From positions 864,001 to 928,000 of the forward strand of contig CAVXRD010000001.1 of assembly GCA_963764165.1 (NCBI GenBank): 64,000 bases of DNA, in the 5' to 3' direction. The position numbers and the translations under genes were made by a program. This stretch comes from an uncultured Verrucomicrobiae bacterium. Lineage in GTDB: Bacteria; Verrucomicrobiota; Verrucomicrobiia; Limisphaerales; Palsa-1400. The notes beneath the pieces were generated by a model that saw only the letters and a program-made list of their open reading frames with translations, made no database searches and was not told the DNA's origin. Positions 5,575-62,891 of the stretch are shown here, one piece after another (within the stretch, counting starts at the first letter, position 1; each line of letters opens with the position of its first letter).

Positions 5575-6588
5575 TCATCCGTGAAGGGGAATCTCATTGT
5601 TCCGCAATGCCGCGAGGTCATTGAGCCGGGTCAGAATGGATGGAGAAGACTTTGATTGGCTTTGGTGGCCCAGGTGCGTTTTTTGAGCCGAGCCGCTGGG
5701 GAGCATTCGATTGGCCAAGGAGGCGACAGCGGTGGAGAAGTTCGGCGCCATGCCGCTGGAAAGCACCGCTAATTTCGCAGGCACGCCAAGGACCACGCGC
5801 GCCGCGTTCCGCTGGCAGGCCGAAAGAATTTTCGCCGCCGCGCGCTCGGCGCTCATCGAAAGAAGCGGAAGCGAGCCGGAAACCGAAAACCATGCATGCT
5901 CGGCCCGATGGTCGCCCTTGAAGAGGGCATTTCTGCTGCTGCCAGTGCGCATGAGCCCGGGGCAGATTGTTGTCACATAAATATGCTCGCGGCGCAGCTC
6001 CGCCCGCAATGCCTCCGAAAAGCCGACCAGCGCAAATTTGCTGGCGCAATACGGAATCATGTGGGGAATGCCGATTTTTCCGCCGATGGAGGCGATGTTT
6101 ACAATCCGCCCCGCTCCGGCGCGCCGCATATGCCGCAGCACAGCCATCGTCGTGTGGAGGGCGCCGTAAAGATGCACCGCCAGGGCGTCCTCATAATCCT
6201 GGACAGTCATCGAATCGACCGGTCCGACCTGCATCATGCCCGCGTTGTTAATGAGAACATCGATCTTGCCAAAACGCCTGGCCACTTCGCTCATCGCGGC
6301 GTTGACCTGCGAAGGATCTCGGACATCGCACGCAATGCCGAGCACGCCGGTGCCCCCGGCCCGGAGCTGGTATTCTGCGCGGCGCAATTGCCCCTCGCTG
6401 CGGGACATGATAACCACGTTGGCGCCCTTGCCGACCAATTGGCGCGCCAGCACAAGGCCCAGCCCGCGCGACCCGCCCGTGATCACGACGAGCCGGTTTC
6501 GAAAAGAAAAGCGATTGTGGCTGGCGATCCGCTTCGCCATGAAAAAACCACCGAGGAACGCGCCCGCCACTGTTGCTGTTTTCCACAT
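5575..6588 (-). CDS. Short-chain dehydrogenase/reductase (SDR)
   Basis: TGGSRGLG, NNAG, YCASK catalytic motif. Confidence 0.93.
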   Translation of the reverse strand: MWKTATVAGAFLGGFFMAKRIASHNRFSFRNRLVVITGGSRGLGLVLARQLVGKGANVVIMSRSEGQLRRAEYQLRAGGTGVLGIACDVRDPSQVNAAMSEVARRFGKIDVLINNAGMMQVGPVDSMTVQDYEDALAVHLYGALHTTMAVLRHMRRAGAGRIVNIASIGGKIGIPHMIPYCASKFALVGFSEALRAELRREHIYVTTICPGLMRTGSSRNALFKGDHRAEHAWFSVSGSLPLLSMSAERAAAKILSACQRNAARVVLGVPAKLAVLSSGMAPNFSTAVASLANRMLPSGSAQKTHLGHQSQSKSSPSILTRLNDLAALRNNEIPLHG

Positions 6589-47939: not shown

Positions 47940-48545
47940 TCACAATTGCAATTTCGGAACATCCGGCACGTTGACAAGCCGCGACATGATCATTTCAAAA
48001 ATGCCGACGGCGGCAAAGATGATCGAGCAGATCCAAAGCGGCTTCTTTTTGGTCAGCAGGCACAGGGACGCCATGGCGATGGCTACGGAAAAAAACGAGC
48101 TGGCCAGCGCAAGGCTGCCGCCGATCTGGCTGGCGGCTTTCTGGCGGGCCTCGTATCTGTGGGCAGCTTCCCGGATATCATTCTTGCGGTCGTTGTAATC
48201 CTTGATTTTGGCATCATAGGTCTTCTGCATATCAGCGGTGTCATTGGCGGATGAACTCCTCACCAATTGCGCGCGGTTCAATTCAAACAGATGCTGCTTG
48301 ATCGATTGCGCCTGGTAAAAATTCCAAAAATCCGAAGCCTGCAATTGCGACATCTGGTTCAAGCTCGAGGATTTTCCGGCCCATTGCGTGCCGATGGAGG
48401 CGATGACGGCGAAGAGCACGACCGTAAAGGAAACGTATTTGGTCCACGCCTCCTTGCGCTCCTTTTCTTTTGCCGCCGCGCGGTCGGCCTTCAAATCCGC
48501 GATGAATTCCTTCAGTTCCGCCAATTCACTTTTCAGATCATCCAT
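47940..48545 (-). CDS. DUF4337-like membrane protein
   Basis: WTKYV TM, ASDFWNFYQAQSIKQHL, two C-terminal TMs with LTKKK. Confidence 0.8.
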   Translation of the reverse strand: MDDLKSELAELKEFIADLKADRAAAKEKERKEAWTKYVSFTVVLFAVIASIGTQWAGKSSSLNQMSQLQASDFWNFYQAQSIKQHLFELNRAQLVRSSSANDTADMQKTYDAKIKDYNDRKNDIREAAHRYEARQKAASQIGGSLALASSFFSVAIAMASLCLLTKKKPLWICSIIFAAVGIFEMIMSRLVNVPDVPKLQL

Positions 48546-48797
48546 ATAATATTCGTCAATTCTTACGAGACTGGTTCACGTAATGCAATCATTGCCGATT
48601 CACATTAAGTGGAGCGGCTGTGTTCGACGGAGCGAATCGATGGAGAATCAGCCGCAGCGCGCTGCGATCAATCAGCGCCTTTCGTTCAACGTGCTATAAC
48701 TGGTCTGCGACCCGGTCGCGCTCCTCCTAAGGCCTGCGTCCATCACCGCTTTTTATCACACCCGCGTGCACGCCAGTTGCACTGGCTGCTGCGCCGA

Positions 48798-48839
48798 AAC
48801 GATTCAGTTGATGAAGAAAAACTCGTTGGAGATTAGGAG
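48798..48839 (-). repeat. Short displaced copy of the DUF1553 gene 3' end (att-like)
   Basis: AACGATTCAGTTGATGAAGAAAAACTCGTTGGAGATTAGGAG matches 55033-55074 and 59628 onward. Confidence 0.85.
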
Positions 48840-49389
48840 GGAGGAGCGGCATCGTGCGCCTCAGTATAGGCGCCGTGGCGGTTGCGCGATGTGATCATTA
48901 TATAATCTCCAAAAAGGGGCAACACCCGCTACATTGTTGACTATAAGGCATTTAAGTAGCTACAAACTGGCAACAAACTGGCAACATGACCGTTACAACC
49001 AGCAACATTTTCGGAACATCGGGGAATTTCCACACCAAGGAAACAAAGGACACGAAGAATTTTGTCTCGCACGCCATTGATTTTGGGAGCGCGACCATCC
49101 GGGGTATTGGGCGATGTCCGGGGTCATGGGGCAATGAGGTTTTTGCCGCAAAAACCAAGGGTGCAATAGGGTGCAATAGCGTGCAACGCCCCAATCACGG
49201 TTTGGGTGTGATTTTAAGCGGGGAGGATATTTGGGCGGACACGCAGGTCCGCCCTGCCAAATTGAGGTAGGGCGGCGCTGCGTCGCCGCCGAAATATTAT
49301 TGAGGGCCTCCACCACATTCAATCATGCCCTCGCGGTTTATTAAGTCGCCCTGCCTAACACCACAGGGCAGACGCATCTTAATTCTGTG

Positions 49390-49633
49390 GTAGGGACGCC
49401 TCGCCGAGATTGTCTCAAAACTACAAAATCCTCAAAGTGTGTCAATACTACGACTCTTTCATTTGCGATATGGCGCATTTTTATTTTCGGCGAGGGTGTT
49501 TTTGTGGTGCTTTTTAAAGCCGTTTTTGAGTTTTGAGACAGTCTCCGCCGAGGCGTCCGGTTGCGCGTGAAATGCTTCTGGCGTTGTGCATGAATGATGC
49601 CTCACCCCGGACGCCTCGGCGAGGCGTCCCTAC
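49390..49633. repeat. Inverted REP pair (first copy split by a MITE)
   Basis: GTAGGGACGCCTCGCC/GAGGCGTCC (49390-49558) and GGACGCCTCGGCGAGGCGTCCCTAC (49609-49633). Confidence 0.8.
49406..49545. mobile_element. 140-bp MITE with 17-bp TIRs and a 4-bp TSD, inserted in the REP centre
   Basis: GAGATTGTCTCAAAACT ... AGTTTTGAGACAGTCTC, flanked by CGCC on both sides. Confidence 0.85.
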
Positions 49634-49749
49634 CAATCAACGAGCTTGGCCTCGTTGATTTTCAATAGATTACAAGAATTAAGATGCGTCTGCCTTGCCT
49701 GACACCACCCTGGGGCGCGAATCCGCAAAATGTCAAAGAACACGCCCAA

Positions 49750-50022
49750 GCAGCCCGTTAAAAAACTATGGACACTGCAGTTTCGCCAAAAGTGGCCCGC
49801 CGACAAGGCGGGACGAAGGAGCATGTCCAAACTGGACCTGTGACTGAGGAGCAACGCAGTCGCCGGGCCACTTTTGGCGAAACCCTTAGGGCTGAGGGCC
49901 TTTTGGCTCGGTTCTTTGTCGTTCCTCACTCCCAGATCCGTTCGGAAATGCTCGCTCGTCTCTCCGCGAACCAACCCAAAACTCCTCTCAGCTGCAATGT
50001 CCATAGTTCTTTAACGGGCTGC
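49750..50022. mobile_element. 273-bp MITE with 31-bp TIRs and a CAA duplication
   Basis: GCAGCCCGTTAAAAAACTATGGACACTGCAG ... CTGCAATGTCCATAGTTCTTTAACGGGCTGC; absent at the homologous site near 23440. Confidence 0.85.
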
Positions 50023-50241
50023 CAACGGCAACAGGGAGAAAATAATGCCGCAAGCGCTTTTGTCAATTACTTTTGCAAATGCACGTTTCTGTGGTATATA
50101 TGGGAGCATGACAAACGAAATATCGATTGTCCGGGTGAGACCGGAGGCAAAAACATCAGCGGGGGCGCGGGGGGCGGGCCCTTCACGTTTTCAGTGGAAT
50201 GCGATGCTCTCACTGACGGTTGCTCCGAAAGCCTGTCCGTA

Positions 50242-50466
50242 AATCCCGAAGGGATTTTATCATTCAGCCCAGCGTTGGCTCGATTCTGAGAGGGCCTACG
50301 CTGGGTCATGGCGATTAAAAGTTCACAACCCTGAAAGGGTTGAATATCAGATGCTTATGGAGGCGATGCAACTCTTTCAGAGTTGATGGCTTCTTGGCGT
50401 TGACCCAGGGTAGCCCTCTCGGAATCGGGCAACCCTTGGCTAGATGATCCCAATCCCGTTGGGATT
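50242..50466. repeat. Long multi-hairpin inverted-repeat element
   Basis: AATCCCGAAGGGATT ... CAACCCTGAAAGGGTTG ... CAACTCTTTCAGAGTTG ... AATCCCGTTGGGATT. Confidence 0.7.
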
Positions 50467-50552
50467 GTTCGGCGGGTCGGGAACTGAAATACCACGCGGC
50501 TATTGCATTGAAAATGTGGAGGAACCGAAAAAGGCGTCGCCAACATACTGTA

Positions 50553-50684
50553 ATTGCATATTTTGACGTCACCCAATACAGGCGGATGTTTGCGGTTGCT
50601 TGATTGCGGGCGGCTGCGCAAGTCCGGGCGGCGATATCAAATCAGTTCGGAAGAAGGGGCAATGATCGCGACCAGAATATGTGA
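50553..50684 (+). repeat. About 132-bp direct repeat, copy 1
   Basis: ATTGCATATTTTGA..TCACCCAA.ACAGGCG.ATGTTTGCGGTTG...AATATGTGA; copy 2 at 51622-51753. Confidence 0.85.
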
Positions 50685-50738
50685 ATACTCTAACTTAAAG
50701 CTGCCTTCAGAACTCATGCACCGAACGGATCGATGCGC

Positions 50739-50772
50739 TTGCGAAGCAGATGTCCAACGGATACGTTAGACA
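50739..50772 (+). promoter_or_regulatory. TA operon promoter with overlapping operator palindrome
   Basis: TTGCGA-17 nt-TACGTT, 7 nt before the ATG; TGTCCAACG-GATA-CGTTAGACA palindrome overlaps the -10. Confidence 0.6.
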
Positions 50773-50774
50773 CC

Positions 50775-51008
50775 ATGAAAACAATTAGCACGCGCGAGTT
50801 CTTTCATGCTCCGGGCCTCGTCAAGAGTCTGCGGCCGGGGCAAACACTCCTGGTGACGGATAATGGGAACCCCAACTTCATGGTCACGAAGGCGGGATGC
50901 CGCCCCATGAAAACTGCGGCTGATTTGCAGCGGGAGGCCGAGGAGATTTTTCCGGGAAAACGTCCCAGGGTGAATTTCACCAGCTTGATTCGGAAGCTTA
51001 AAAAATGA
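50775..51008 (+). CDS. Phd/YefM-like antitoxin
   Basis: MKTISTREF...GQTLLVTDNGNP; overlaps the PIN gene start. Confidence 0.75.
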   Translation: MKTISTREFFHAPGLVKSLRPGQTLLVTDNGNPNFMVTKAGCRPMKTAADLQREAEEIFPGKRPRVNFTSLIRKLKK

Positions 51009-51484
51009 ATCTTTATGCGGATTCGAGCTTTGTTGTGGCAAGCCGCATCCGGCATGACACTTTTCACAGGCCTGCCTTGCAGTTTTACAAAGGCCATGAA
51101 ACCGACGTTTGGTTTTGGTCGCCCTGGCACCGGGTGGAAGTTTTGAATACTATTCGACAACTGACACGCAATCCCGACCGCAAACGGAGCCTCAGTCAGG
51201 CAGAAGCCAAGGCGTTGATTTACCGGATTGAAACGGACGTGCGCCTCGGTTATTTACTGCACATCGAAGCAGACTGGAGGGATGTGCTTCGGACGGCCAG
51301 CGAAATCAGCGCGGAGAACGCCTTTGCCCGCTCGTGTCCGGCAACGGATTTGCTCCATGTCGCTTACGCAAAGGAATTTGCCGCGGATCTGTTTGTCAGT
51401 TTCGACGACGAACAGGTTTTGCTGGCGCAGTCGGCGGGATTAATGGCCATCAACCCCGTGAATGGGTCTTCTTTGTCGGATTGA
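51005..51484 (+). CDS. vapC: PIN-domain (VapC-like) toxin
   Basis: YADSSFVV, HRVEV.N, DLLHVAYA, FVSFDDEQ. Confidence 0.85.
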   Translation: MNLYADSSFVVASRIRHDTFHRPALQFYKGHETDVWFWSPWHRVEVLNTIRQLTRNPDRKRSLSQAEAKALIYRIETDVRLGYLLHIEADWRDVLRTASEISAENAFARSCPATDLLHVAYAKEFAADLFVSFDDEQVLLAQSAGLMAINPVNGSSLSD

Positions 51485-51551
51485 GTTGTGGCAGAAGGCC
51501 CCGAAAACCATTGCGCATCGCAGCGGTTTTGGCCGCATTAGCGTCATGGCT

Positions 51552-51590
51552 GGAGAGATGGCAGAGTGGTTTAACGCGCACGCCTGGAAA
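51552..51590 (+). pseudogene. 5' half of tRNA-Ser(GGA), ending at the anticodon loop
   Basis: GGAGAGATGGCAGAGTGGTTTAACGCGCACGCCTGGAAA; the 3' anticodon strand GCGTG, variable arm and T-arm are missing. Confidence 0.85.
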
Positions 51591-51621
51591 ATGTAAAACC
51601 GTTTTTTGCTTTGGTAATCTC

Positions 51622-51753
51622 ATTGCATATTTTGAAGTCACCCAACACAGGCGCATGTTTGCGGTTGTTTGATTGCGGGCGGCGGCGCAAGTCCGGGCGC
51701 GGATATCAAATCAGCTCGGAAGTGCGGGCAATGACCGCGACAAAAATATGTGA
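51622..51753 (+). repeat. About 132-bp direct repeat, copy 2
   Basis: Aligns to 50553-50684. Confidence 0.85.
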
Positions 51754-52006
51754 TTGAGTTGGTCTGACACAATGCCCTAATGGGCGCCCCTTTCACTTTC
51801 TGCCGATCAAGAGAATCGCCGTGCGGGTGGGATTGGGAACATCAAAGAGCGCCAACGCCGAACTGCATAAATGGATGCAATCCAACGGGAAAGGAACGGC
51901 GCTGCAGCCAACGAAGGCAACAAAATGATCGAGAAAACAGGCAAAAACGAACGAAACTATGGGTTGACCCCTTTTACTGTGCTCGGTTCATTGCTCCCTT
52001 TCAATT

Positions 52007-54929
52007 TCACGGCAATAGCAACAGGCGATAAAATCCTTCTGCTTCTGGTCCGATGGCAATGGATACCGTCGTCGTGGAATTGGTTGCGATGATGGCGGTT
52101 CCTAAATCAATCCAGCTTGCCTGAGAAAGATCGGTCTTGTACCTGTAATTGCCATGTTTGTCCTCTGGTTCCACTCCAAGCAAGAGTCAATTCGCTATCG
52201 GTTCGACTTGAAGTTACAACAAGCATTGGCAGCTTTGTTGCAACCGCCGGAATATATCTGGTGAGCAAAAAAGCGTGTCTTTGGCCCAATGGATTGAGAC
52301 CATAACCAACTATTTGGCCTTTGTCGTTGATGCCGTTTGCGCACAACAACGTCCATCCGGACGTTTGATCGATCCAAGTGTTCAGGTCAATAAACCTGCC
52401 TCCCGCGTAAAGACAGGCACAGCCTTCTCCGCCAGTATTGTAATCATAAGTAAACCCCACAATCTGACCTTTGTTGTTTATGCTCGTGGCTTCGCTTCCA
52501 TTGGTTCCCAATGTACCCAAGTCAGTCATAGTCCCTGCACAATAAAGGAATGCATGGCCCAACAGAGAGGCATAGCCGAAGTCGTTGCCACTGATTGTAG
52601 AAAACCCAACCACTTGGTTGCTGTCATTAATGCTGTAGGCATCACTGTAACTGCCGCCCAGTGTACCCAAGTAGGTCATCGCTCCCATATTATAAAGGTA
52701 CGCTTCATCAGTTCCTGGGTAGTAATTGATACAGGCGATTAGGCCGTTGTCATTTATGGCGGTCGCTTCACTCTCGGCGTTCGTGTCGCTATCTAGCGTT
52801 CCCAAGTCGCTCATCGTTCCTGCGGAATAGAGAAAGGCATGCCAGGGGCCTGCGACGGTGTTGGCATAACCTACAACCTGTCCACTGTTATTGATACCAG
52901 AAGCTTGGCTGTAAGCGCCTCCCAAAGTACCCAGGTCAGTCATCCTTGCTGCGTTATAAAGGAAGGCGCGGTTCGAGACGCAGTTCCATGAGAACCCAAC
53001 GACTTGACCCTTGTTGTTGATAGCGCAGGCCATGCTGCCGTCGTCATCGCCGCCGAGTGTTCCCAAATTGATCATTGCCCCTTCGCTATAAAGATAGGCA
53101 TAGTCGGCGAGGTCCCCACTAGCATAAGCATCCCCTACCACTTGGCCCATGTTGTTGATAGCAAGTGCTTCGCTGATGCTCCCTCCCAGTGTTCCCAGGT
53201 CGATCACCATAAGATATGTAAGCGCATTTATGAGGTCAGTGCCGCTCGGCGTGCCCCATCCAGTGCAGAGATCGTAGCCGGAAACTGCGAAAAACTGGTT
53301 TGGGCTGGCACTGCTAGTGTTATTCCCAGATGTAATGTCATTGAAGCAGGAGCCGTAATTTGTGCTCTGACCAATCCCATAAATCGCTGGATTGATAAAA
53401 CCCACCGGTGGCATGCCGTTTGTCTCTGCCTGCTGGTTGACGAGCGCCATAAAACCAGCCCAAAGAGGCGCGCCGGCACTAGTCCCTTCTATTGCCTCTT
53501 CTTGGCCATTGTCCGCAACGACAAAAATGTCGTCGGCGACCATGGCAACATCGGGTAGGTTTCTCATCCTCTTCGATCCCCTATTAGCGCTCATATCAAC
53601 TCCCTGTTGCCACTCCGGGATTGGGTACGAAGCGCTGATTCCGCCGCCACTACCTGTACCGTTGTTATCATTCCAAACTGATTCCGAAACCCGCGCTTCA
53701 CCTGAACCGCTCATCGTCAAGGATGTTCCACCCACAATTGTGATACTCGGCTCGTCGACTGGCGATGGAACCCCTCCGACGTAAGCATCCTTGTCGCCAC
53801 TGGAGTTGAAGAAACTTTGCCCTTGCAGGCCAAATTCTTGAAAAATCTGCTCTGTGCTTGCGTCGATGTTAAGGCCGGTCCACGAACAACTGATTTGGTT
53901 GGCTAGATCGTCCGTGGCGATGCGGTTCAAGATGTCATTATCAACCGAAACCACGTCGTTGTTGATGGCCTCGTAAACAAAAACATTAGACAATCCAGGG
54001 GCGATTGAAATCGCCATCTCAATATCCAGAGCAACCTCGCCATTGTCGCTGCCTGGCGTGCCGCTGAATCCATCCAACAACACATTCGACAAGGGTACGG
54101 TGTGTATGCCAGCTTTGCCTTCATAAATGGCGATGTCGTTTGGATAGTAGCCGTCGAATTCAACCAAAGCAACCGCCTGCCCGAAACCAGTCAAACTGAC
54201 TCCCGGCACGTAGGCGGCACGAAAATCGTTGCCCATATAATTACCGCTTGGCCCAGAGCCGTTTTGTGGGGTGGCATTCCGCGGATTTGGTTTCTTCCGG
54301 TGCATGTTGGAGTGCAGACGGATGTAGTTGTCCAAGCCGCTGATGTGCAGGACGGGCACGACCGAATCTAGAGATGGATCAACATCCGGAGCAAAGAAAG
54401 TTCGCGGTTCGGTTGGATGTTGGTAAATAAGAAGGCTAACATGGAACATTTTCTCTATTTGCGCGACCGTCCCACTAACATCCAGCAACGTGCGATTGGG
54501 TTGTGTTCCTGTGACCGTCATGCCATTGGCTTCAACGAAATCTGTGAGAGCCTGATAATCCTCTTTGGTTGGGCCAAATCGCGCTGTGAACTGCACGGGG
54601 GTCAAATACTGGTGATAATCGGAACTTCCCGGGTCATAGATTTGTTTAAACAGTGTGTCGGCCTCTTGTTTCCCGCGTAATGGCAGGCCGATGATGATAC
54701 CCAGACGGGTTAACGGCGCCAAACGACCAACCGGTTGCAGGCGAGCTGTGATCGAAGGAACATGGCCGTGGAGCGTTTGTTTACCCCTCGGCTGCGCGAC
54801 AGCCGCCTGTTGTTGACCAACAACCTGACCTAAAACGGAACCTACTGGCATTAAGACGCCAGCCAAAATCAAGTTGAGGCCGACGATTTGCGCCAGCAAG
54901 TGAAATAGACGTCTCTTGCACGATCCCAT
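52007..54929 (-). CDS. S53 serine protease with HAF-type extracellular repeats; frameshift near 52142 in the C-terminal domain
   Basis: EVALDIE, SGD, RNLPDV, GTSAGAPLWAG, GYDLCTGWGTP; repeated DLGTLGG..S.A..INN.GQVVG...HAFLY; removing one base restores QYKTDLSQASW...GFYRLLLLP*. Confidence 0.88.
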
Positions 54930-55038
54930 AAATGACTTGGAATTCAAATTGCCTTGCATGCCAGCGTTTGCTTCAAAGGACAATTTTTCTACGCCGCGCC
55001 CAACTTAAATGCAACCGAAAAGTCGAAGCCAGAACGAT

Positions 55039-55161
55039 TCAGTTGATGAAGAAAAACTCGTTGGAGATCAGGAGCACTTGCGCGAACTTATCCCACGTCC
55101 CCAGTGGCTTGACTTGCGCGCCGGGGATGCGGAAGTTCTCACGGGCGTCCCATAGACCCGT
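55039..55161 (-). repeat. 123-bp displaced allele of the DUF1553 gene 3' end
   Basis: 6 mismatches versus 59628-59750; encodes TGLWDARENFRIPGAQVKPLGTWDKFAQVLLISNEFFFIN*. Confidence 0.92.
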
Positions 55162-55164
55162 AAA

Positions 55165-55212
55165 GGGGTCAGTTAAGGGTATTGGCATATTCCAATACCC
55201 TTAACTGACCCC
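55165..55212. repeat. Palindrome with perfect 21-bp arms, copy 1
   Basis: GGGGTCAGTTAAGGGTATTGG-CATATT-CCAATACCCTTAACTGACCCC. Confidence 0.9.
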
Positions 55213-55597
55213 GTTGTCCGATTACGCATCCGCGAGCTCAAGAGCGGACGACAGGAGGTGGAAACAGTTTGGATCGTCACCAGTCTGAGCGCCGAGAAAG
55301 CAGGCGCGGCCCGGCTCTTGGAGCTAGCCCGCCAATACTGGAGCATTGAAAACGGCACACACGACCGCCTCGACGTCAGCAGCGGGGAGGATCGTTGCCG
55401 GGTGCGCCATCCCGTGGCGGCAACGGTGCTCGGGATCCTCCGCCGCGCTGTGCAGGGTGAATATCGAGCATGGGCGCACCGCCAGCGTAGAGTCAGAGAC
55501 AGCACCTGTCCGGCCTTCCTGGAGAAGATGGGCCGACGCGTCCCCTTGGTTCTCCGCTACCTCCTCGGCGATGTCTCAAGACGTTAGAGCGGCCCTG
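55213..55597 (+). mobile_element. ISAs1-family transposase 3' remnant with right end
   Basis: WIVTSL, RQYWSIENGTHDRLDV...EDRCRVR motifs; ends ...GCGGCCCTG like an ISAs1 IR; frame begins at the palindrome edge. Confidence 0.8.
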
Positions 55598-55663
55598 GCG
55601 TTGCTTAGCAGTTTTCCCAAGGTGCTTGTCAGGAGTTCGGAGCCGTGCTAAGTTCTCAAGGCC

Positions 55664-55930
55664 ATGCAAGTGACCGTCGAAATGCCCGACCAAATTGCCC
55701 GCCAATGGGGAGACACCCCGGATGCGATTGGCCGTCACATTTTGGAGGATGCAGCCATTGAAGGTTATCGCGCCGGACGCCTTTCGCAACGGCAGGCAGG
55801 CACGATGCTGGGGCTGGACTATTGGCAAACCGAAGCCTTTTTGAGCCAGCGCTCTGTGCCGCTGAATTATTCCCCCGCCGATCTCTCGGATGACAAGGTC
55901 ACGCTGGAAAAAATTCTTTCCGGCTCGTGA
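55664..55930 (+). CDS. UPF0175-family putative antitoxin
   Basis: AAIEGYRAGRLSQRQAGTMLGL...FL...VPLNY. Confidence 0.8.
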   Translation: MQVTVEMPDQIARQWGDTPDAIGRHILEDAAIEGYRAGRLSQRQAGTMLGLDYWQTEAFLSQRSVPLNYSPADLSDDKVTLEKILSGS

Positions 55931-56359
55931 GCGTCGTTGTTTCTGATACTTCACCATTGACTACCTGATTTTGTGCCACGCGGCCGACGTGTTGCCCCAG
56001 TTGTTCCACCAAGTGGTGATTCCGCCGACGGTGTTCCGCGAAATGCAGCAGCCCAACACGCCGCCCGCGGTGCGCCAGTGGGCATCCGCGCTGCCGCCTT
56101 GGGTGAACGGGAAGCTATTTGCCTCGCCAAGGAAATCCACGCCGACGCGGTGCTGATGGACGACAAGGCTGGGCGCAACGCGGCCAGGCAGTGCGGTCTG
56201 GCTGTGGTCGGAACCATTGGTTTGCTGGAACAAGCCGCCAAACGAGGGATGGTTGATTTGCCAACTGCACTGGCAAGTCTGCGCCGGACCAACGCCCGGC
56301 TGGACCCCGAACTCATTGAAGCCGCGCTTCTTCGTGGCCAGGCACGGACGCGAAGTTGA
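55927..56359 (+). pseudogene. DUF3368 (PIN-like) putative toxin, disrupted
   Basis: VVSDTSPL, then a frameshift near 55960; IPPTVFRE...LPPW, then a jump near 56102 to GEREAICLA...LMDD...GTIGLL. Confidence 0.75.
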
Positions 56360-56761
56360 GAGCCGCCTAATCTTCCAGCAGAGCAGATTTCCGTTCACCC
56401 CCCCTCCCTCGAATTGACGATTGCCAGAATCGCCGCCTTAAGAACCGCCGGGAGTTTATCCCATGACGCGACTGCTTTAGCCAAATCAGGTACTGGCCGT
56501 GTCCGCGGCCTGTGCGCGCATCCGTGTATAGCCCTCTGTGGCGGATTGCGGAACCATTGTAGTATTTGGCAGAAATTGGATACACTCCCGATAATCCTAT
56601 TCTCAAACGCCGCCATACAATACCTCCGTTGGCCGACATCGGCGTAGCCGCATGCCAAAACTTCATGCCCAGCTTTTACCACGCCCGCCCCCGGCCATGG
56701 CAGGAGGTCCTCCCTTTACCGCCTACACTTCATCGTGCATCTCAATCGCAGGTCCAAGCCA

Positions 56762-57556
56762 TCAATGATGCTCCTTGCTTGGCGGAACGGTATCGACTGA
56801 AGAATTGTTCGTCCCGGCGCCCAACCGCAGCTCGGATGACGCATATTCTGCGATGAGATTCCTTCGTTGCTGGTCCGAATACCTCAAATAATCTGCGTCA
56901 CTAATTCTGATCAGCTTCCGCCAGTTCCGCAGTTCGACCGCAGGAACGGTCGCCCATGAGCTCTCTTCAAGCCGAAGAAAAACCAACTCCTTTGTTCGGC
57001 CATCAATTTCAATCCAAACGTCTGTTCCCGGTTTTGGTCCCCATTCCAAATCGAAAAGCGGAAGCATATCCTTTAAATTTGCTTCCTCGTTCCGCCATCG
57101 AAATTGCTGGCTGACTACGCAGCGGTTGCTTCGTTCTAGCGCCGACACATTCACCCCCATTTTCCAGAGCCAGTTCGTGGCGAGGTGGTACGCGTCATTC
57201 GTGCCAATCGTTGAGGACTGCCTGGAAAGCCAATCATTCCTTCTGGCCACGGGCCAGGTATCCCAAATATTGCCTTTAACTATAAACACCAGTCTTCCGG
57301 CGTCAGAGAATCCATAACTGTAATTGTCCGTTGTCACCCGCCCTGAAAACTTTGGTTGATTCGGAATATCGCCGGCCCATAAGGCTGGCGGAGTGGAAAA
57401 CGCCTCAAACCCCCAAAGGTTAGGAGCAGTTACATTGGTATACCTCAGAGTGCTCGTCTCCACCGGCAGATTTTCCACCAGACCAAGCCGCGGCACCGCC
57501 CAGTTAATATTCGAAACCATTAATGCCACTGCAACGTACTGATAGGCTAAAAACAT
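56762..57556 (-). CDS. Hypothetical protein
   Basis: 264-aa ORF in an AT-richer segment; GGGAGA upstream; no recognised motif. Confidence 0.6.
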   Translation of the reverse strand: MFLAYQYVAVALMVSNINWAVPRLGLVENLPVETSTLRYTNVTAPNLWGFEAFSTPPALWAGDIPNQPKFSGRVTTDNYSYGFSDAGRLVFIVKGNIWDTWPVARRNDWLSRQSSTIGTNDAYHLATNWLWKMGVNVSALERSNRCVVSQQFRWRNEEANLKDMLPLFDLEWGPKPGTDVWIEIDGRTKELVFLRLEESSWATVPAVELRNWRKLIRISDADYLRYSDQQRRNLIAEYASSELRLGAGTNNSSVDTVPPSKEHH

Positions 57557-57610
57557 ATTTTCATCTCCCGCAACGCCCGAAGCTATTGGTTAATGCCCCC
57601 TCGGTAATTA

Positions 57611-57640
57611 ACGAGGGTTCGATTCCCTTCGCCCGCTCCA
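57611..57640 (+). pseudogene. 3' fragment of tRNA-Gly (att-site remnant)
   Basis: ACGAGGGTTCGATTCCCTTCGCCCGCTCCA is a T-arm, acceptor strand and CCA; no 5' half upstream. Confidence 0.85.
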
Positions 57641-57826
57641 TGAATAATCCACCACTTACAAAGAGACGCAAGTGAAGTGCAAGCAAATCGAGCACTTCCG
57701 GCCCCGAGAATTCAATCCAATTTTTCCGTCAGCGAAGGGAATTGAACCCTCCTTGTCGCCTCACCCCTGGGTGGCAGGCCACCCCCCCGAGGCAAGCCTT
57801 GCGATGCTATGGAAAACGCCGAGAAA

Positions 57827-57873
57827 GGGGTCAGTTAGGGGTATTGGTATATGCCAATACCCTTAACTGACCC
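57827..57873. repeat. Palindrome, copy 2
   Basis: GGGGTCAGTTAGGGGTATTGG-TATATG-CCAATACCCTTAACTGACCC. Confidence 0.9.
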
Positions 57874-58046
57874 GTGGCGCACCATTCATAGCCATGTCTC
57901 GCCATACGTCCGAATTTCAGACCAACATAATCGCATATGCTCCGTCCTCCGCCAAGGCGCGCGCTGCTAAGAAGCGACGCGCATCTCGTCAGCCTTGAGC
58001 GTAGCCGCACTTTTCATTTGTCGAAACCGTCGTCATTCAACAATCT

Positions 58047-58241
58047 GTGGCTGTGGGCGTGTCTTCGAAAACGAGCAATGGATTTGCGGCCCCGCCTCGC
58101 ACGGGCAAAGAGATGCGGTCGCTCTACCGCCGAGTAGTCAAGAAGATTACCGCCATGTCGCCTGAACAACGGCTGGCGACGATGGTGCGGGCGGGCATTT
58201 ACACCAAGAGCGGGAAGCTGACCAAACAGTACGGGGGCTGA
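58047..58241 (+). CDS. Small basic hypothetical protein (start uncertain)
   Basis: SPEQRLATMVRAGIYTKSGKLTKQYGG; convergent with the NYN gene. Confidence 0.5.
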   Translation: MAVGVSSKTSNGFAAPPRTGKEMRSLYRRVVKKITAMSPEQRLATMVRAGIYTKSGKLTKQYGG

Positions 58242-58336
58242 TAAAAGCGATTCATTCCACAAGCTACGGCTCCCTGCTTCGCACTCCGGGCCATACGTCA
58301 GAGCAGCGCGGCCCCGCGCCTCGCCTGACGATGTTT

Positions 58337-59035
58337 TCAAATCCATTCAGGCGGACGAGTGATCGCTTCGTTTTCGTTCACCCGGACCGTGGCCGGAAAT
58401 AAGTGGCGTGGAATGTCTGTCAACGGGAGCGGTTTGCAGGTCACTCCCATGCGGTGATAATTGTCGTTGCGGCGCTGTTGGCGCTCGTCCTCCAAAACCG
58501 GAACATACACGGTGATTTTTACGTGCGGATAATTCTGGCGCACCCATTCGACGGCGGGTTCAAGGTCGGAATCGCCGGACACAATCACCATTGAATCGGT
58601 CAGCCCCCGAACGGCGTCTTCCAGCAGATTGATCGCAATGTTCACGTCGGTCTTTTTTTCCTCGGCCACTTGGTATTCGAGGCGGCGCATGCAGTCGCGG
58701 GCCTGGCAGGTGACAGTGCGCTCCTGATATTTACCCAGGATGATTCTGACTTTGGGCAACGTGCCGAGTGCCTTCAAATATCGTTTTTGGCGGTCACGCC
58801 GGGTGCTGATGTGTTTCATCGGATCAACCAGCGCCGTGAAAAATTTGACGCTGACAACATCCTCATCCAGCCGCAACGCCTCAAAAAGCGATTGGACATT
58901 CAGCCATTTCCACGCCGGGTTGTGCTGGAATATGCCAAAATACCAGTTGAACGCATCCACGTAGATGGTGCAGCGCTTTTTGGGTTGTGGCGGCGGGTTG
59001 GATTCAGCATAGGGGGAAAAAGGGGCAAAAATCAT
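58337..59035 (-). CDS. NYN-domain (LabA/DUF88-like, PIN fold) ribonuclease
   Basis: IYVDAFNWY, VKFFTA, RQKRYLKAL, EEKKTDVNIA, IVSGDSDLEPA, RPPEW. Confidence 0.9.
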   Translation of the reverse strand: MIFAPFSPYAESNPPPQPKKRCTIYVDAFNWYFGIFQHNPAWKWLNVQSLFEALRLDEDVVSVKFFTALVDPMKHISTRRDRQKRYLKALGTLPKVRIILGKYQERTVTCQARDCMRRLEYQVAEEKKTDVNIAINLLEDAVRGLTDSMVIVSGDSDLEPAVEWVRQNYPHVKITVYVPVLEDERQQRRNDNYHRMGVTCKPLPLTDIPRHLFPATVRVNENEAITRPPEWI

Positions 59036-59078
59036 TAAAATGGGGCTTGATTTTCCGGGCCGAGAGGCCGATATTCAT

Positions 59079-59132
59079 CCCAACTTCTCGCAATTGCGAT
59101 TGGGTGATCCGAAAGGGTTGCCCTCTTTTTTT
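59079..59132 (+). ncRNA. Candidate small RNA divergent from the NYN gene
   Basis: TTGATT-17-GATATT promoter (59047-59075), TCGCAATTGCGA hairpin, GGGTGATCC-GAAA-GGGTTGCCC stem and U-tract; no ORF. Confidence 0.45.
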
Positions 59133-59627
59133 GCCCGGATGGACCGGGCGAACCAGCCTGCAACCAGCCAACTATTCTGCAGAAAGTGTCCGCCGAATCG
59201 GCGGGTAATCCAAAAGCATTCATGCACGTTCTTTTAGCAGGCGCATTCTGTATGAATGGATAAATGATGTCACGGTTGGAAACGCGTAATATATGGGGCG
59301 CCTAACGGCACTCACCGGACATGGCGTTTCGACAACGCTGGTGAAAACCTGCAATGATAACGAGCCACTGTCAATTAAATCCGTTAAGCGCATCGTCCGC
59401 CCAGTTTCCCAGTTTCTTCGTCCCTTGCTTCGTGAGCATCAACCGGTTAAACTGCGGCCATAAGTGTGACTGCCATGCCCAGCGTCGAGAGCGATTGTCG
59501 AAAAGAAGTTTGCCAGCCAAATCCAGCAGCAGCATAGCGCCATAACCAGCCTTTTGGTTTAACGTGCTGCGACTGGTCTGCGACACAGTCGCGCTCCGCA
59601 TAAGGTCCCTCACCCATCACCCACGCT

Positions 59628-62600
59628 TCAGTTGATGAAGAAAAACTCGTTGGAGATCAGGAGCACTTGCGCGAACTTATCCCACGTCGCCAGTGGCTTG
59701 ACTTGCGTGCCGGGGAGGAGGAAGTTCTCGCGAGCGTCCCATAGACCCGTCAAACCGGTCGTTTCCGCGTCCGTCCGCGCCATCAGGACTCGCGGGGCCC
59801 ACTCGAAATAGTTGGCGCGCATTCCTGGCAAAGCTTCGACCATGAAATCGATCGTGTCGCCCTCGCGCACTTCAATGTTATCGAGGGTTGTCATGACCGC
59901 GCCGCTTCGCACCTGCCATTCGTTCAGCAATCCGAGGCGGCTGGAGACGACGAGTCCCTGCCCCGCGCCCTTGGTCGCCAGTTCGCCGCTGATGGAAATG
60001 ACGCCGTCCCGCGGCGCGATCCATCGGCGGATGGCGGCGACGCTGGCTTTGCCGGGAATGCCGCCAGCCGCGTTAAGCTGCACAAAACCCAAACGCGCCT
60101 GAGAGCTGGCGTCTGTTGTCCAGGCGCCGTTTCTGAAATTGGACAGCTTCTGGAAATCCTTCGTGCGCTGGCTCGAATCGTCGAAGAAGCCGGCGCCGTA
60201 ATCCCACGCGGAAGTCGCGGGTTCCACCGCGGCGGCCGACGGCTGCTCACGCGCGTATTCCTCTGCCAGTTCCAGCTCGCGGCCAGTCGGCTGGCGCTGG
60301 AAAAGCAGGCGGTACATCCGCGCGACAGTGGCGGCAGCGTTGTTGGAAGACGCGCCGCAGTGCGCGGCCACGGCCCGCGCGCATTGCGAGATGAGAGGGC
60401 CATTGAGCAAATACAAGGCCTGCGGCGCAACGATGGTCTCGAACCGGCCAGGCGTGCTCGTGTTGGGATCAGCGAAATCAAAGGTGCGAAAAAGGGAGGG
60501 CAGCTTTTGGCGGTCGATATAGGCATAAACTGTGCGGCGCGCGGGCGCGGTGTTTGAAGTGATGTCCACCGGGTGGCCGCCCACCGTGAAATCCAATTCC
60601 CCCGCGACCGACAGCAGAGAATCGCGCATGGCTTCGAAATCGAGACGCACGGGATTCATGCGCCAATACCGGGTATTGTCTGGATCCGTTTTGGAGACGG
60701 CCGCGTCGTAGGTGCTCGCTTGTTGATAGACACTGGAGAGCATGATGAGCCGGTGCAGCTTTTTGAGCGACCAACCGTCCCGCATGAAGCGCGCGGCCAT
60801 GTAATCCAGCAACCCGGCTTGCAAAGGGCGCTCGGAGCGCAGTCCAAAATCACCCGGCGTCGACACGAGCGGCGCGCCGAAGTGATGCATCCAAACGCGA
60901 TTGACAAACACGCGCGCGGTCAGCGGATTTTGCGGACTGACGATGTCCTCCGCCAATTGCAATCGCCCGCTGGCTTTTTCGGGGAACGGTTGCTCTCCCG
61001 GCTGGGCCAGAATCGAGAGAAACTCGCGTGGCGCCTCGGGCCCGCGCGTTTCTGGATTGCCGCGCAGGAACACTTTGGAATTGGCGGGATGCGGTTTGTC
61101 CAGCAAGACCATGGCCCGCGGCGGCGCCCCGGGATCGGTCGCCTCAATGTCCGCCAGCTTCCCCCTGAGCGCGTCGATCCTGTCGCGCATGGAATCGTCA
61201 ATTATATTTAGATTGGTCAATTCGGCGCGCGGCGGATTGAGCGGCGAATCCGGGGCCTCGGCAAACGCAATCAATTCGATCGCGTTGTCATCGCCAGTGC
61301 CAATCGCCGAGAAAACTTGATTGTATGTCGAAGCGGCGTCTTCCAAATTGGCAAAAACCCTGCCGGAAAAAGCCCTGGCCACAAACGGATTCAGGTCGGC
61401 GCCGGTGTATTTGGAGGCGCCGGCCGCCAGAGCCTTCCACGGGGCAAACAGCCGCCCGTGGTTTGTTTCGATCTGCGCCAGATTTGTTTTCCAGCTCAAG
61501 TAGACGGATTTGTGGAGGCCGCGCTCGCGGACCAAGTCGTCTTCAGCGACGGAGTTGCTGGCCAGGGGAGCGGCGTCATGCACGGCCAGCAGGTAGTCTC
61601 CCACCCGCCTGCGCAAGTTCTCGATCACCGCCACTTCGTTGGAACGCGCGCAATCATCCAGCATGGCTTGGGTGGCCTGAATTTTGGCCAGGTAATTCGT
61701 GTAAGCCTCGGACGGAGGCGCGGTCAGCAGCGGCAAATCGGGAGGCTCAGCCGAACTGTTGAAAACGCCGTGCAGCGAATAATAATCGCGCGCCGGTATG
61801 GGATCGAATTTGTGGTCGTGGCAGCGGGCGCAATTGACCGTCAAACCCAGCAATCCGCGCGAAACCACATCGATCCTGTCGTCAATAATATCGTTTTCGT
61901 TCCCGGAGAATCGGCGGCCGACCGTCAAGAAACCCAGGGCCGCCAGATTCCGGTGCTCGTTCGCGCTGGCGGGCAATTGATCGGCCGCCAGTTGTTCGAG
62001 GATGAATTGGTTGACCGGCTCGTCTTCGTTGCAGGCGCGGATCACGTAATCGCGATAAGTGTAGGCGTAAGGCAGCCTCGCGCTGTCGCGCCCGCTGGCG
62101 CTGCCGCTCGTGTCCGCGTATCGGGCCACGTCGAGCCAGTAGCGGCCCCAGCGCTCGCCGTAGCGCGGGGAGGCCAGCAGGCGGTCCACCACTGTGGCGA
62201 AGGCGTCCTTGGAGCGATCGGCCAAAAAGGCGTCCACCTCCTCCGGCGTGGGCGGAAGACCTGTCAAATCAAAAGTCGCGCGGCGAATCAGCGCGCGCTT
62301 GTCCGCCGGGGGCGACGGATGCAGGTTTTTGGCCTGCAAATTCTCGAGGATGAAGGCGTCAAGCGGTGTGCTTATCCATTTCTTGAGCTTGCGGACTTTT
62401 GGCACGGCCGGCTCGGTGATCGGTTGAAAGGCCCAATGCTTGCGCGCCGCCTCCAGCGATTGAGACGCCACGCTGGCGCCAGCCTCGCGCGGGTCCGGCG
62501 CGCCCATTTTCACCCACTCCCGCAAGTCCTCAATTTGCGCATCGCTGAGTTTGTGGTTTTTGGGCGGCATCTTCAAATCCGGGTCTTCATAGCCGATGGC

Positions 62601-62891
62601 CTTGATGAGAAGACTGTCTTCAGGACGACCGGGCACAATCGCGGCCCCGCTGTCACCGCCCTTGAGAAGATCATCGCGCGTGTCAAGCATGAAGCCGCCA
62701 TGAACCTTCTCGCTATGATGGCTGTGGCATCGGTAACAATTCTCGGCCAGCACGGGCCGGACTTTGCTTTCGAAGAAATCCAGGCCCGCCTGGGAGACGG
62801 CATTCGTGGCGGCAGAAACAGTCCAGCAGGCAAAAGACAATCCAACGGCGATAAGACTCGCTCTAAAACGCGCCAGGGCGCCCGCACTCAT
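59628..62891 (-). CDS. Planctomycete cytochrome c / DUF1549 / DUF1553 domain protein
   Basis: FFESKVRPVL.ENCYRCH, HWAFQP, RRATFDLTGLPPT, YGERWGRYWLDVARYAD, CARCHDHKFDP, NPLTARVFVNRVW, LLISNEFFFIN. Confidence 0.95.
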   Translation of the reverse strand: MSAGALARFRASLIAVGLSFACWTVSAATNAVSQAGLDFFESKVRPVLAENCYRCHSHHSEKVHGGFMLDTRDDLLKGGDSGAAIVPGRPEDSLLIKAIGYEDPDLKMPPKNHKLSDAQIEDLREWVKMGAPDPREAGASVASQSLEAARKHWAFQPITEPAVPKVRKLKKWISTPLDAFILENLQAKNLHPSPPADKRALIRRATFDLTGLPPTPEEVDAFLADRSKDAFATVVDRLLASPRYGERWGRYWLDVARYADTSGSASGRDSARLPYAYTYRDYVIRACNEDEPVNQFILEQLAADQLPASANEHRNLAALGFLTVGRRFSGNENDIIDDRIDVVSRGLLGLTVNCARCHDHKFDPIPARDYYSLHGVFNSSAEPPDLPLLTAPPSEAYTNYLAKIQATQAMLDDCARSNEVAVIENLRRRVGDYLLAVHDAAPLASNSVAEDDLVRERGLHKSVYLSWKTNLAQIETNHGRLFAPWKALAAGASKYTGADLNPFVARAFSGRVFANLEDAASTYNQVFSAIGTGDDNAIELIAFAEAPDSPLNPPRAELTNLNIIDDSMRDRIDALRGKLADIEATDPGAPPRAMVLLDKPHPANSKVFLRGNPETRGPEAPREFLSILAQPGEQPFPEKASGRLQLAEDIVSPQNPLTARVFVNRVWMHHFGAPLVSTPGDFGLRSERPLQAGLLDYMAARFMRDGWSLKKLHRLIMLSSVYQQASTYDAAVSKTDPDNTRYWRMNPVRLDFEAMRDSLLSVAGELDFTVGGHPVDITSNTAPARRTVYAYIDRQKLPSLFRTFDFADPNTSTPGRFETIVAPQALYLLNGPLISQCARAVAAHCGASSNNAAATVARMYRLLFQRQPTGRELELAEEYAREQPSAAAVEPATSAWDYGAGFFDDSSQRTKDFQKLSNFRNGAWTTDASSQARLGFVQLNAAGGIPGKASVAAIRRWIAPRDGVISISGELATKGAGQGLVVSSRLGLLNEWQVRSGAVMTTLDNIEVREGDTIDFMVEALPGMRANYFEWAPRVLMARTDAETTGLTGLWDARENFLLPGTQVKPLATWDKFAQVLLISNEFFFIN

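Follow-up and report, generated by a model that had tools for sequence, protein, structure and literature searches.

Insertion of DNA with a long duplication of its target was reportedly described by Nobusato et al. in 2000. In the accessible portions of Furuta, Abe and Kobayashi 2010 (PMC2853133), long target duplication is defined for restriction-modification (RM) genes by repeats that are longer than 30 bp, variable and unique, and by an insert shorter than 20 kb without any other mobile element; the repeats are imperfectly identical and often lie across a translation start or stop, and the species concerned are mostly naturally competent. The available part of PMC3874152 mentions the phenomenon for RM systems only, PMC2654758 cites Nobusato et al. 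in its reference list alone, no treatment of illegitimate recombination was found in PMC12378983, and in the portions of the literature found here the insertion step, in a pattern known since 2000, is without experimental demonstration. Here we describe a related arrangement in a window of 64,000 nucleotides (the whole stretch of DNA analysed) from an uncultured Verrucomicrobiae bacterium, carried on a 1.7-Mb contig of a 7.0-Mb genome (G000; C1-C4 are contig labels). Verrucomicrobiia and Limisphaerales assemblies gave the best named homologs, so that a verrucomicrobial host is likely from the sequence too. Within the window, the 3′ end of a DUF1553 gene recurs twice downstream of the gene, and the three ends bracket two inserts, A and B. 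Our preferred reading, to which we assign a probability of about 0.6, is that DNA of related strains was inserted twice at this gene by homology-anchored events which displaced the old ends.

The anchor gene is intact (Table 1); its start probably lies at 62891, in an open frame that extends to 63113, and its stop at 59628. Along the gene the order is gene end (copy 1), insert A, copy 2, insert B, copy 3, a REP-like arm and a DUF4337 gene. The preliminary description, made by inspection of the window, had reported a 123-bp copy with six mismatches, and comparison of 55039-55161 with 59628-59750 confirmed this copy together with both peptide alleles. All six mismatches (two synonymous, four non-synonymous) fall 62-106 nt from the stop, while the final 61 nt are identical to the gene. 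The C-terminus had also been proposed to be swapped; a change is present, but it is allelic only, affecting four residues in 40 codons and leaving the final motif the same, and at one non-synonymous difference, the Gly before the Trp, copy 2 agrees with orthologs. For copy 3 the recurrence stood and the length of 42 bp did not: the match to the gene covers 36 bp (48804-48839), and the 42 bp (48798-48839) are obtained when copies 2 and 3 are compared with each other; these two have in common six bases past the stop that are absent at the gene. These three ends are the sole matches in the genome, all in direct orientation, and by chance a 36-mer match with one mismatch would be expected ~3e-13 times in a genome of this kind. 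The other nine PSD1 matches of the genome had no duplicated end in a genome-wide scan. That mis-assembly produced the copies is exceedingly unlikely, as they differ from one another, their flanks are unique, the contig spans 1.7 Mb and the pattern recurs in other assemblies.

Between the ends, the two cargo blocks described earlier as about 6.2 and 4.5 kb, with toxin-antitoxin genes, a protease and a NYN gene, were recovered at 6199 and 4466 bp. The locus had been called integrase-free, which held: no tyrosine or large serine recombinase was found within 99 kb, the nearest PF00589 match being 99.9 kb off, and no RM family was found among the open reading frames (ORFs) of inserts A and B. The locus resembles long target duplication in its direct repeats of 123 and 36 bp, both above 30 bp, in its inserts of less than 20 kb, and in a repeat that is not multicopy (three genomic matches) and varies in length from 36 to 206 bp between loci. 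The inserts found in this work differ in their cargo of toxin-antitoxin pairs, sigma factors and a protease in place of RM genes, and two of them are stacked at one gene. The DUF1553 locus has the geometry by which long target duplication is defined, and is not an RM case.

The same scar was present at other genes of this genome. When the terminal 120 nt of each of 3945 genes served as queries, with mid-gene stretches as the matched control and gene-end fragments below ~30 bp undetectable, eight orphan copies from seven genes lay downstream in direct orientation and the control gave none; one further copy was upstream-direct and two were inverted. The other hosts were carB, lptF/G and genes for an exo/endo/phosphatase, a prepilin-type protein, a sulfotransferase and an M16 peptidase; there the repeats measure 87-206 bp, at 85-93% identity, and the inserts 1.3-3.2 kb. 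DUF1553 was the only one of the seven struck twice. In the mirror scan, which used the starts of 3930 genes, ten copies were upstream-direct, four downstream and one inverted, against three and one in the control. Seven of the ten upstream-direct copies were inspected and six retained as clear displaced starts, whereas the hit at C2:1350987 was dropped as a 393-bp, 66% paralog remnant. From sequence reading we take the 5′ hosts to include msrA, acs, rarA, dnaB and kdsA. Several near-identical gene-start copies were also observed at C2:762926-776081, upstream and downstream of C2:773500.

Across genes, the repeats measure 36-206 bp and the inserts 0.6-6 kb, and 9 of 16 repeat ends fall within 5 nt of the stop and all within 34 nt. 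The 14 inserts (eight behind 3′-end copies and six behind 5′-start copies) contained no PF00589 or PF07508 match; insertion sequence (IS) transposases occurred in two of them, and in the dnaB case an integrase lies ~5 kb outside the bracket. A toxin-antitoxin-type gene was present in 5/14. Among five relatives, the downstream neighbours of carB, lptF, M16 and exo/endo/phosphatase genes vary and none equals the neighbour in G000. In the congener G004, where the scan covered 1.2 of 5.3 Mb, seven matches were obtained from 691 genes with no mid-gene match, and six were retained, the match on the plus strand of L322 being discarded as 40 bp lying mostly beyond the stop. One match came from 227 genes of G007 (0.4 of 6.0 Mb scanned), and a metagenome locus (L208) carries the scar at a DUF1501 gene. 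Applied to G000, the piecewise pipeline gave seven 3′-downstream matches, one of them repeat-derived, and missed DUF1553 at a piece edge; it also gave 15 mid-gene matches in all orientations, three of them downstream-direct, and its control there was not zero.

Displaced gene ends are also left by integrating islands. In its accessible part, the Islander study (PMC4383910) treats tandem tRNA and tmRNA islands with displaced fragments, requiring an integrase for each island and fixed crossover subsites. As in such islands, a restored gene and a displaced direct end downstream mark the insert limits, and tandem arrays leave several fragments; unlike them, the DUF1553 locus has no integrase, and its fragments start at 123 and at 36 nt from the gene end, without a fixed crossover. 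The preliminary description had suggested a tandem integration hotspot at the DUF1553 end, not known as a described attB, with a lost or trans-acting recombinase as one option. On this reading a tyrosine or serine recombinase would use the gene end as attB, and two elements would have entered in tandem and lost their integrases or used an enzyme supplied in trans. We consider such site-specific integration very unlikely, and the attB hotspot claim was not supported. Although DUF1553 is the sole gene struck twice, the repeat has two lengths at this one site, and the same scars occur at 12 unrelated genes, 5′ ends included. With a dozen unrelated sequences, both gene ends and repeats of 36-206 bp involved, a sequence-specific recombinase is itself unlikely. 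The relics of tRNA-targeted islands in both inserts speak for integrases, as do the matches to tyrosine (22) and large serine (5) recombinases in the rest of the genome. The short orphan ends in G000, G001 and the metagenome locus L233 all start 12-16 codons before the stop, as a fixed site would predict, but the detection floor of ~30 bp explains these similar start points.

The DUF1553 ortholog is rare among relatives. In G017 small toxin-antitoxin-like genes come after it, of which one has a PIN domain, and then the contig end, which would suit an integration site, whereas in G022 a single end is followed directly by the next genes and the downstream neighbour differs from that in G000. Of 401 genomes of the order, four had the motif pattern LISNEFFF, and in G000 alone it occurred more than once. 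No second copy of the end was found within its own locus in 76 rows of DUF1553-type ends from genome loci (some loci repeated, many short). Among 73 such ends in metagenome loci, 22 of them with at least 5 kb downstream, only L233 had orphan copies, and no integrase was seen there; the rate is not above the genome-wide background of the scar. In L233, three diverged tandem units of gene end plus repeat surround a PD-(D/E)XK gene, which we take to be of the GxxExxY type, and at L233:350-2160 a DUF1553 end, ~50 nt and an inverted-repeat element are repeated four times before a DUF1501 gene. A match in L228 was dropped as the true end of a paralog. The exact 30-nt core of the gene end had no match in metagenome contigs; a 24-nt core gave four matches in viral contigs, all in the opposite-strand coding frame of another gene, presumably Hsp70-like, and these were set aside as coincidence. 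Within the portions of the literature covered by our search, no report of the DUF1553 family as an attB was found. If it were a new attB family, it would constitute a new integrase target, a reading we regard as unlikely.

No ortholog was found with the query used in four congeners; in G001 (same genus, 95% complete) the best match was 53%. G001 does carry an orphan 15-codon DUF1553 end at L035:2987-3045 (G001:C11:32986-33044), nearly undecayed and at a synteny break, with a transglutaminase-like operon on one side and a ferredoxin-like gene on the other. The DUF4337 gene is likely the older downstream neighbour of the DUF1553 gene (Table 1). A diverged counterpart of the REP-bearing sequence beside the gene had been noted earlier and is indeed present, but its value as evidence is weak: the arm family has 160 BLAST hits in the genome, and when self hits are set aside the copy at 48680-48747 takes 16th place. 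It was dropped as proof of shared origin, and the position and orientation of this arm behind a gene-end copy are only suggestive.

The differences between genes and their displaced copies bear on how the repeats arose. If an exact local duplicate decays while the gene stays under selection, a ratio of non-synonymous to synonymous changes (pN/pS) of ~0.5 is expected. Pooled over G000, 55/92 differences were synonymous and pN/pS was 0.21 (p 2e-5 for the excess relative to 0.5; 0.006 under a six-fold transition bias), with 15 transitions versus 20 transversions at four-fold sites. This synonymous excess favours the copies as former working alleles. It argues against a de novo long target duplication, in which a break is mended with foreign DNA, the repair makes an exact copy of 36-200 bp of local target and this copy then decays, with no donor allele involved. 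Such a duplication would yield a geometry equal to the observed scar, and the consulted portions of PMC2853133 tie the pattern to double-strand breakage; the break-linked model is the one discussed there for RM genes. The cargo here is rich in nuclease-type toxins, in keeping with breakage, while neither insert has a restriction gene. In three copies the non-synonymous changes strike conserved residues, as under decay, yet the repeat ends crowd at the stop, unlike random breaks unless intergenic gaps are tiny. Overall, we judge de novo duplication unlikely, although loci from other genomes fit decay, as set out below.

We favour instead two successive gene-restoring insertions with displaced ends, as the preliminary description had proposed, and of the routes that it listed the data favour homology-facilitated recombination. 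Incoming DNA from a related strain would recombine homologously within the gene at one side and form a non-homologous joint inside the last codons at the other. Each event would deliver a gene end in its donor allele together with the DNA that followed it in the donor, including toxin-antitoxin pairs, a protease, REPs and island relics; the first event would have left 36 bp and the second 123 bp. Only RecA-type recombination would be needed, by homology-facilitated illegitimate recombination. Homology would not reach past the stop codon (in the 5′ cases, past the promoter), since constrained sequence alone is common to the alleles and gene-breaking joints are lost. With about a dozen unrelated genes bearing it, the scar is likely a footprint of the host's own recombination and not a new phage-type docking site. 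Under this favoured model the double hit suggests that the DUF1553 site is variable among strains, inviting repeat events, and a mild local hotspot is plausible because this gene alone was struck twice.

Precedents exist for parts of this mechanism. As far as the accessible text of PMC5361080 goes, homology-facilitated illegitimate recombination is proposed for stacked displaced 3′ ends in Vibrio type VI secretion system arrays. The present locus is similar to the process outlined in the available parts of PMC5361080 and PMC2884548 in its one-sided anchor, its old 3′ end moved downstream, its build-up of an array by successive events and its independence of an integrase. It is unlike the Vibrio arrays in that ordinary genes serve as anchors, old and new ends have almost the same sequence, and displacement also affects 5′ starts. 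In the portions seen of PMC5635113, most hotspots of horizontal gene transfer lack integrases and are explained by double homologous recombination in the core genes to either side. Such hotspots likewise gather accessory genes beside an anchor gene that recombines, with no mobility genes present, but double homologous recombination spreads a locus and does not itself create a duplicated end.

Several observations weigh against this reading. The DUF1553 differences alone (3/7 synonymous) are uninformative. In a replicate of eight loci from other genomes, 42/83 differences were synonymous (pN/pS 0.33-0.42, p 0.04-0.26), and these loci are not separable from duplication followed by decay. Synonymous differences would also increase if, once an exact duplicate had formed, the live gene recombined. 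Homologs near the joint were found for 7/14 junctions, with no consistent microhomology match. A ComEC-type competence gene is present in G000, but ComEC also matches in 10/14 control genomes and so gives no sign of competence. Both inserts contain att-like relics of tRNA islands. No empty site was found among the relatives compared, the proposed comparison having been possible with a single-ended G022 locus with another neighbour and four congeners without a detected ortholog, so that direction, donor and donor tract were not seen. Separately, an enrichment of common REPs at the joints was discarded, as 2/14 lay within 60 nt against a background of 17-20%.

The direct repeats of 36-206 bp might themselves recombine, so that an insert with one repeat loops out of a strain as a circle and then, through one crossover in the common gene end, enters an empty allele again; alternatively, the copies might be remnants of whole-gene duplication. 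The distribution of mismatches in copy 2, with an identical terminal part and all differences upstream, is as expected after crossover or conversion, and the three tandem units in L233 also fit circle traffic. Short repeats at 85-95% identity are poor RecA substrates, though, and such traffic accounts for spread and not for origin, while no further part of the DUF1553 gene remains in the inserts as whole-gene duplication would leave. We hold both variants to be highly improbable.

Table 1. Features of the DUF1553 locus (positions in the window; a dot marks features without assigned strand)
Feature	Position	Strand	Basis or remark
DUF4337 gene	47940..48545	-	Pfam; in G001, orphan DUF1553 end 10 kb upstream of DUF4337, same orientation
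Copy 3, a displaced gene end of 36 bp with 1 synonymous difference; 48798-48803 common to copies 2 and 3 only	48804..48839	-	Sequence comparison
Insert B (copy 2 to copy 3), 6199 bp, 51.7% GC, without recombinase	48840..55038	.	Profile searches
Several genome-wide dispersed repeats, clustered	48890..50530	.	Genome comparison
139-bp direct repeats, 50546-50684 and 51615-51753, 88%	50546..51753	+	Sequence comparison
Small ORF and PIN gene between the 139-bp repeats	50733-51484	+	Pfam
Copy of one end of C2 tRNA-Ser island, between the 139-bp repeats	51500-51606		90% over 107 bp
Kumamolisin-type protease with HAF repeats	52107..54983	-	Paralogs elsewhere in genome
Copy 2, a displaced gene end of 123 bp, 95% identical	55039..55161	-	Sequence comparison
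Insert A (gene end to copy 2), 4466 bp, 55.6% GC, without recombinase	55162..59627	.	Profile searches
50-bp palindrome directly adjoining copy 2	55162..55212	.	Second copy at 57824-57873; none found elsewhere in genome
ISAs1-family transposase, C-terminal fragment	55225..55587	+	Match below cut-off to NCBIfam NF033564 (E 1e-11), covering profile 243-310 of 314
UPF0175 and DUF3368 gene pair, second gene apparently frameshifted	55664..56359	+	Pfam PF03683, PF11848; reading frames
264-aa gene without family	56762..57556	-	26% homolog on contig C4
tRNA 3′-end fragment	57611..57663	+	Best long matches are tRNA-Gly loci
NYN-domain gene	58337..59035	-	Pfam PF01936
49-bp gene fragment	59507..59555	.	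98% identical to internal part of gene at C2:1895284
Arm of genome-wide REP-like family beside anchor gene	59553..59621	.	Another arm at 48680-48747
Present gene end (copy 1), final 123 nt	59628..59750	-	Sequence comparison
DUF1553 (PSD1) / DUF1549 / planctomycete cytochrome c gene, intact anchor	59628..62891	-	Pfam PF07587, PF07583, PF07635; ORF list

Both inserts lack an integrase or recombinase, yet an ISAs1 fragment and relics of tRNA islands lie inside them. In insert A, the UPF0175 and DUF3368 genes are presumably a toxin-antitoxin-type pair, the tRNA fragment may be a relic of a tRNA-targeted element, and the gene matched by the 49-bp fragment is one that we take to be YhcG-like. Perfect GGGGTCA...TGACCCC palindromes were found only twice in the genome, at 55162-55212 of the window and at G000:C1:764547-764597, each on the inner border of a displaced gene end; on C3, the displaced msrA start is adjoined by a related repeat. 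In insert B, the PIN pair inside the 139-bp repeats appears as a nested instance of the gene-end type of scar with a non-coding anchor, and sequence related to 50546-51753 is present twice on C2, near 2331734 and 2334335. At 49708-50120 lies a non-coding element of 415 bp, with inverted repeats nested in it, that is 92.5% identical to C2:1889150-1889561. Positions 48939-49030 were considered as integrase arm sites and rejected, the sequence being a genome-wide repeat. The tRNA-Ser island itself (G000:C2:1841355-1862280, ~21 kb) has a tyrosine integrase and duplicates the 5′ part of the tRNA. Elsewhere on C2, at 1559019-1561230, ARAGORN called nine clustered tRNAs, one with a stop anticodon (tta).

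In G004, 4/6 inserts were solo toxin-antitoxin pairs (HicA, PemK/RelB, PIN and BrnT/CopG matches), the others being one two-gene pair of no known family and one large protein. On G004:C2 the pairs lie at L312, L322, L275, L289 and L304, each enclosed by a host gene end and its duplicate of 55-139 bp, and the two-gene pair (78 and 86 aa, without a Pfam match) is a candidate new pair. Our search of the literature, in the portions available, found no report of toxin-antitoxin pairs with long target duplication. The pattern itself was already known; it is extended here to stacked inserts, to 5′ ends and to solo toxin-antitoxin pairs in Verrucomicrobiota. Tentatively, and at distinctly less than even odds, solo toxin-antitoxin pairs in this Verrucomicrobiota family may be integrase-free cassettes that dock on ordinary gene ends by host recombination and leave a duplicated allele end each time, with the DUF1553 locus as a stacked record. 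Pairs of gene and copy permit a simple test between the two mechanisms, by synonymous excess and by allele match at empty sites. According to the accessible part of PMC7167474, the route by which toxin-antitoxin systems integrate into genomes is unelucidated. The value of the finding lies in its link to the spread of chromosomal toxin-antitoxin systems: if the cassette reading is true, these scars would provide a genome-readable assay for their integration.

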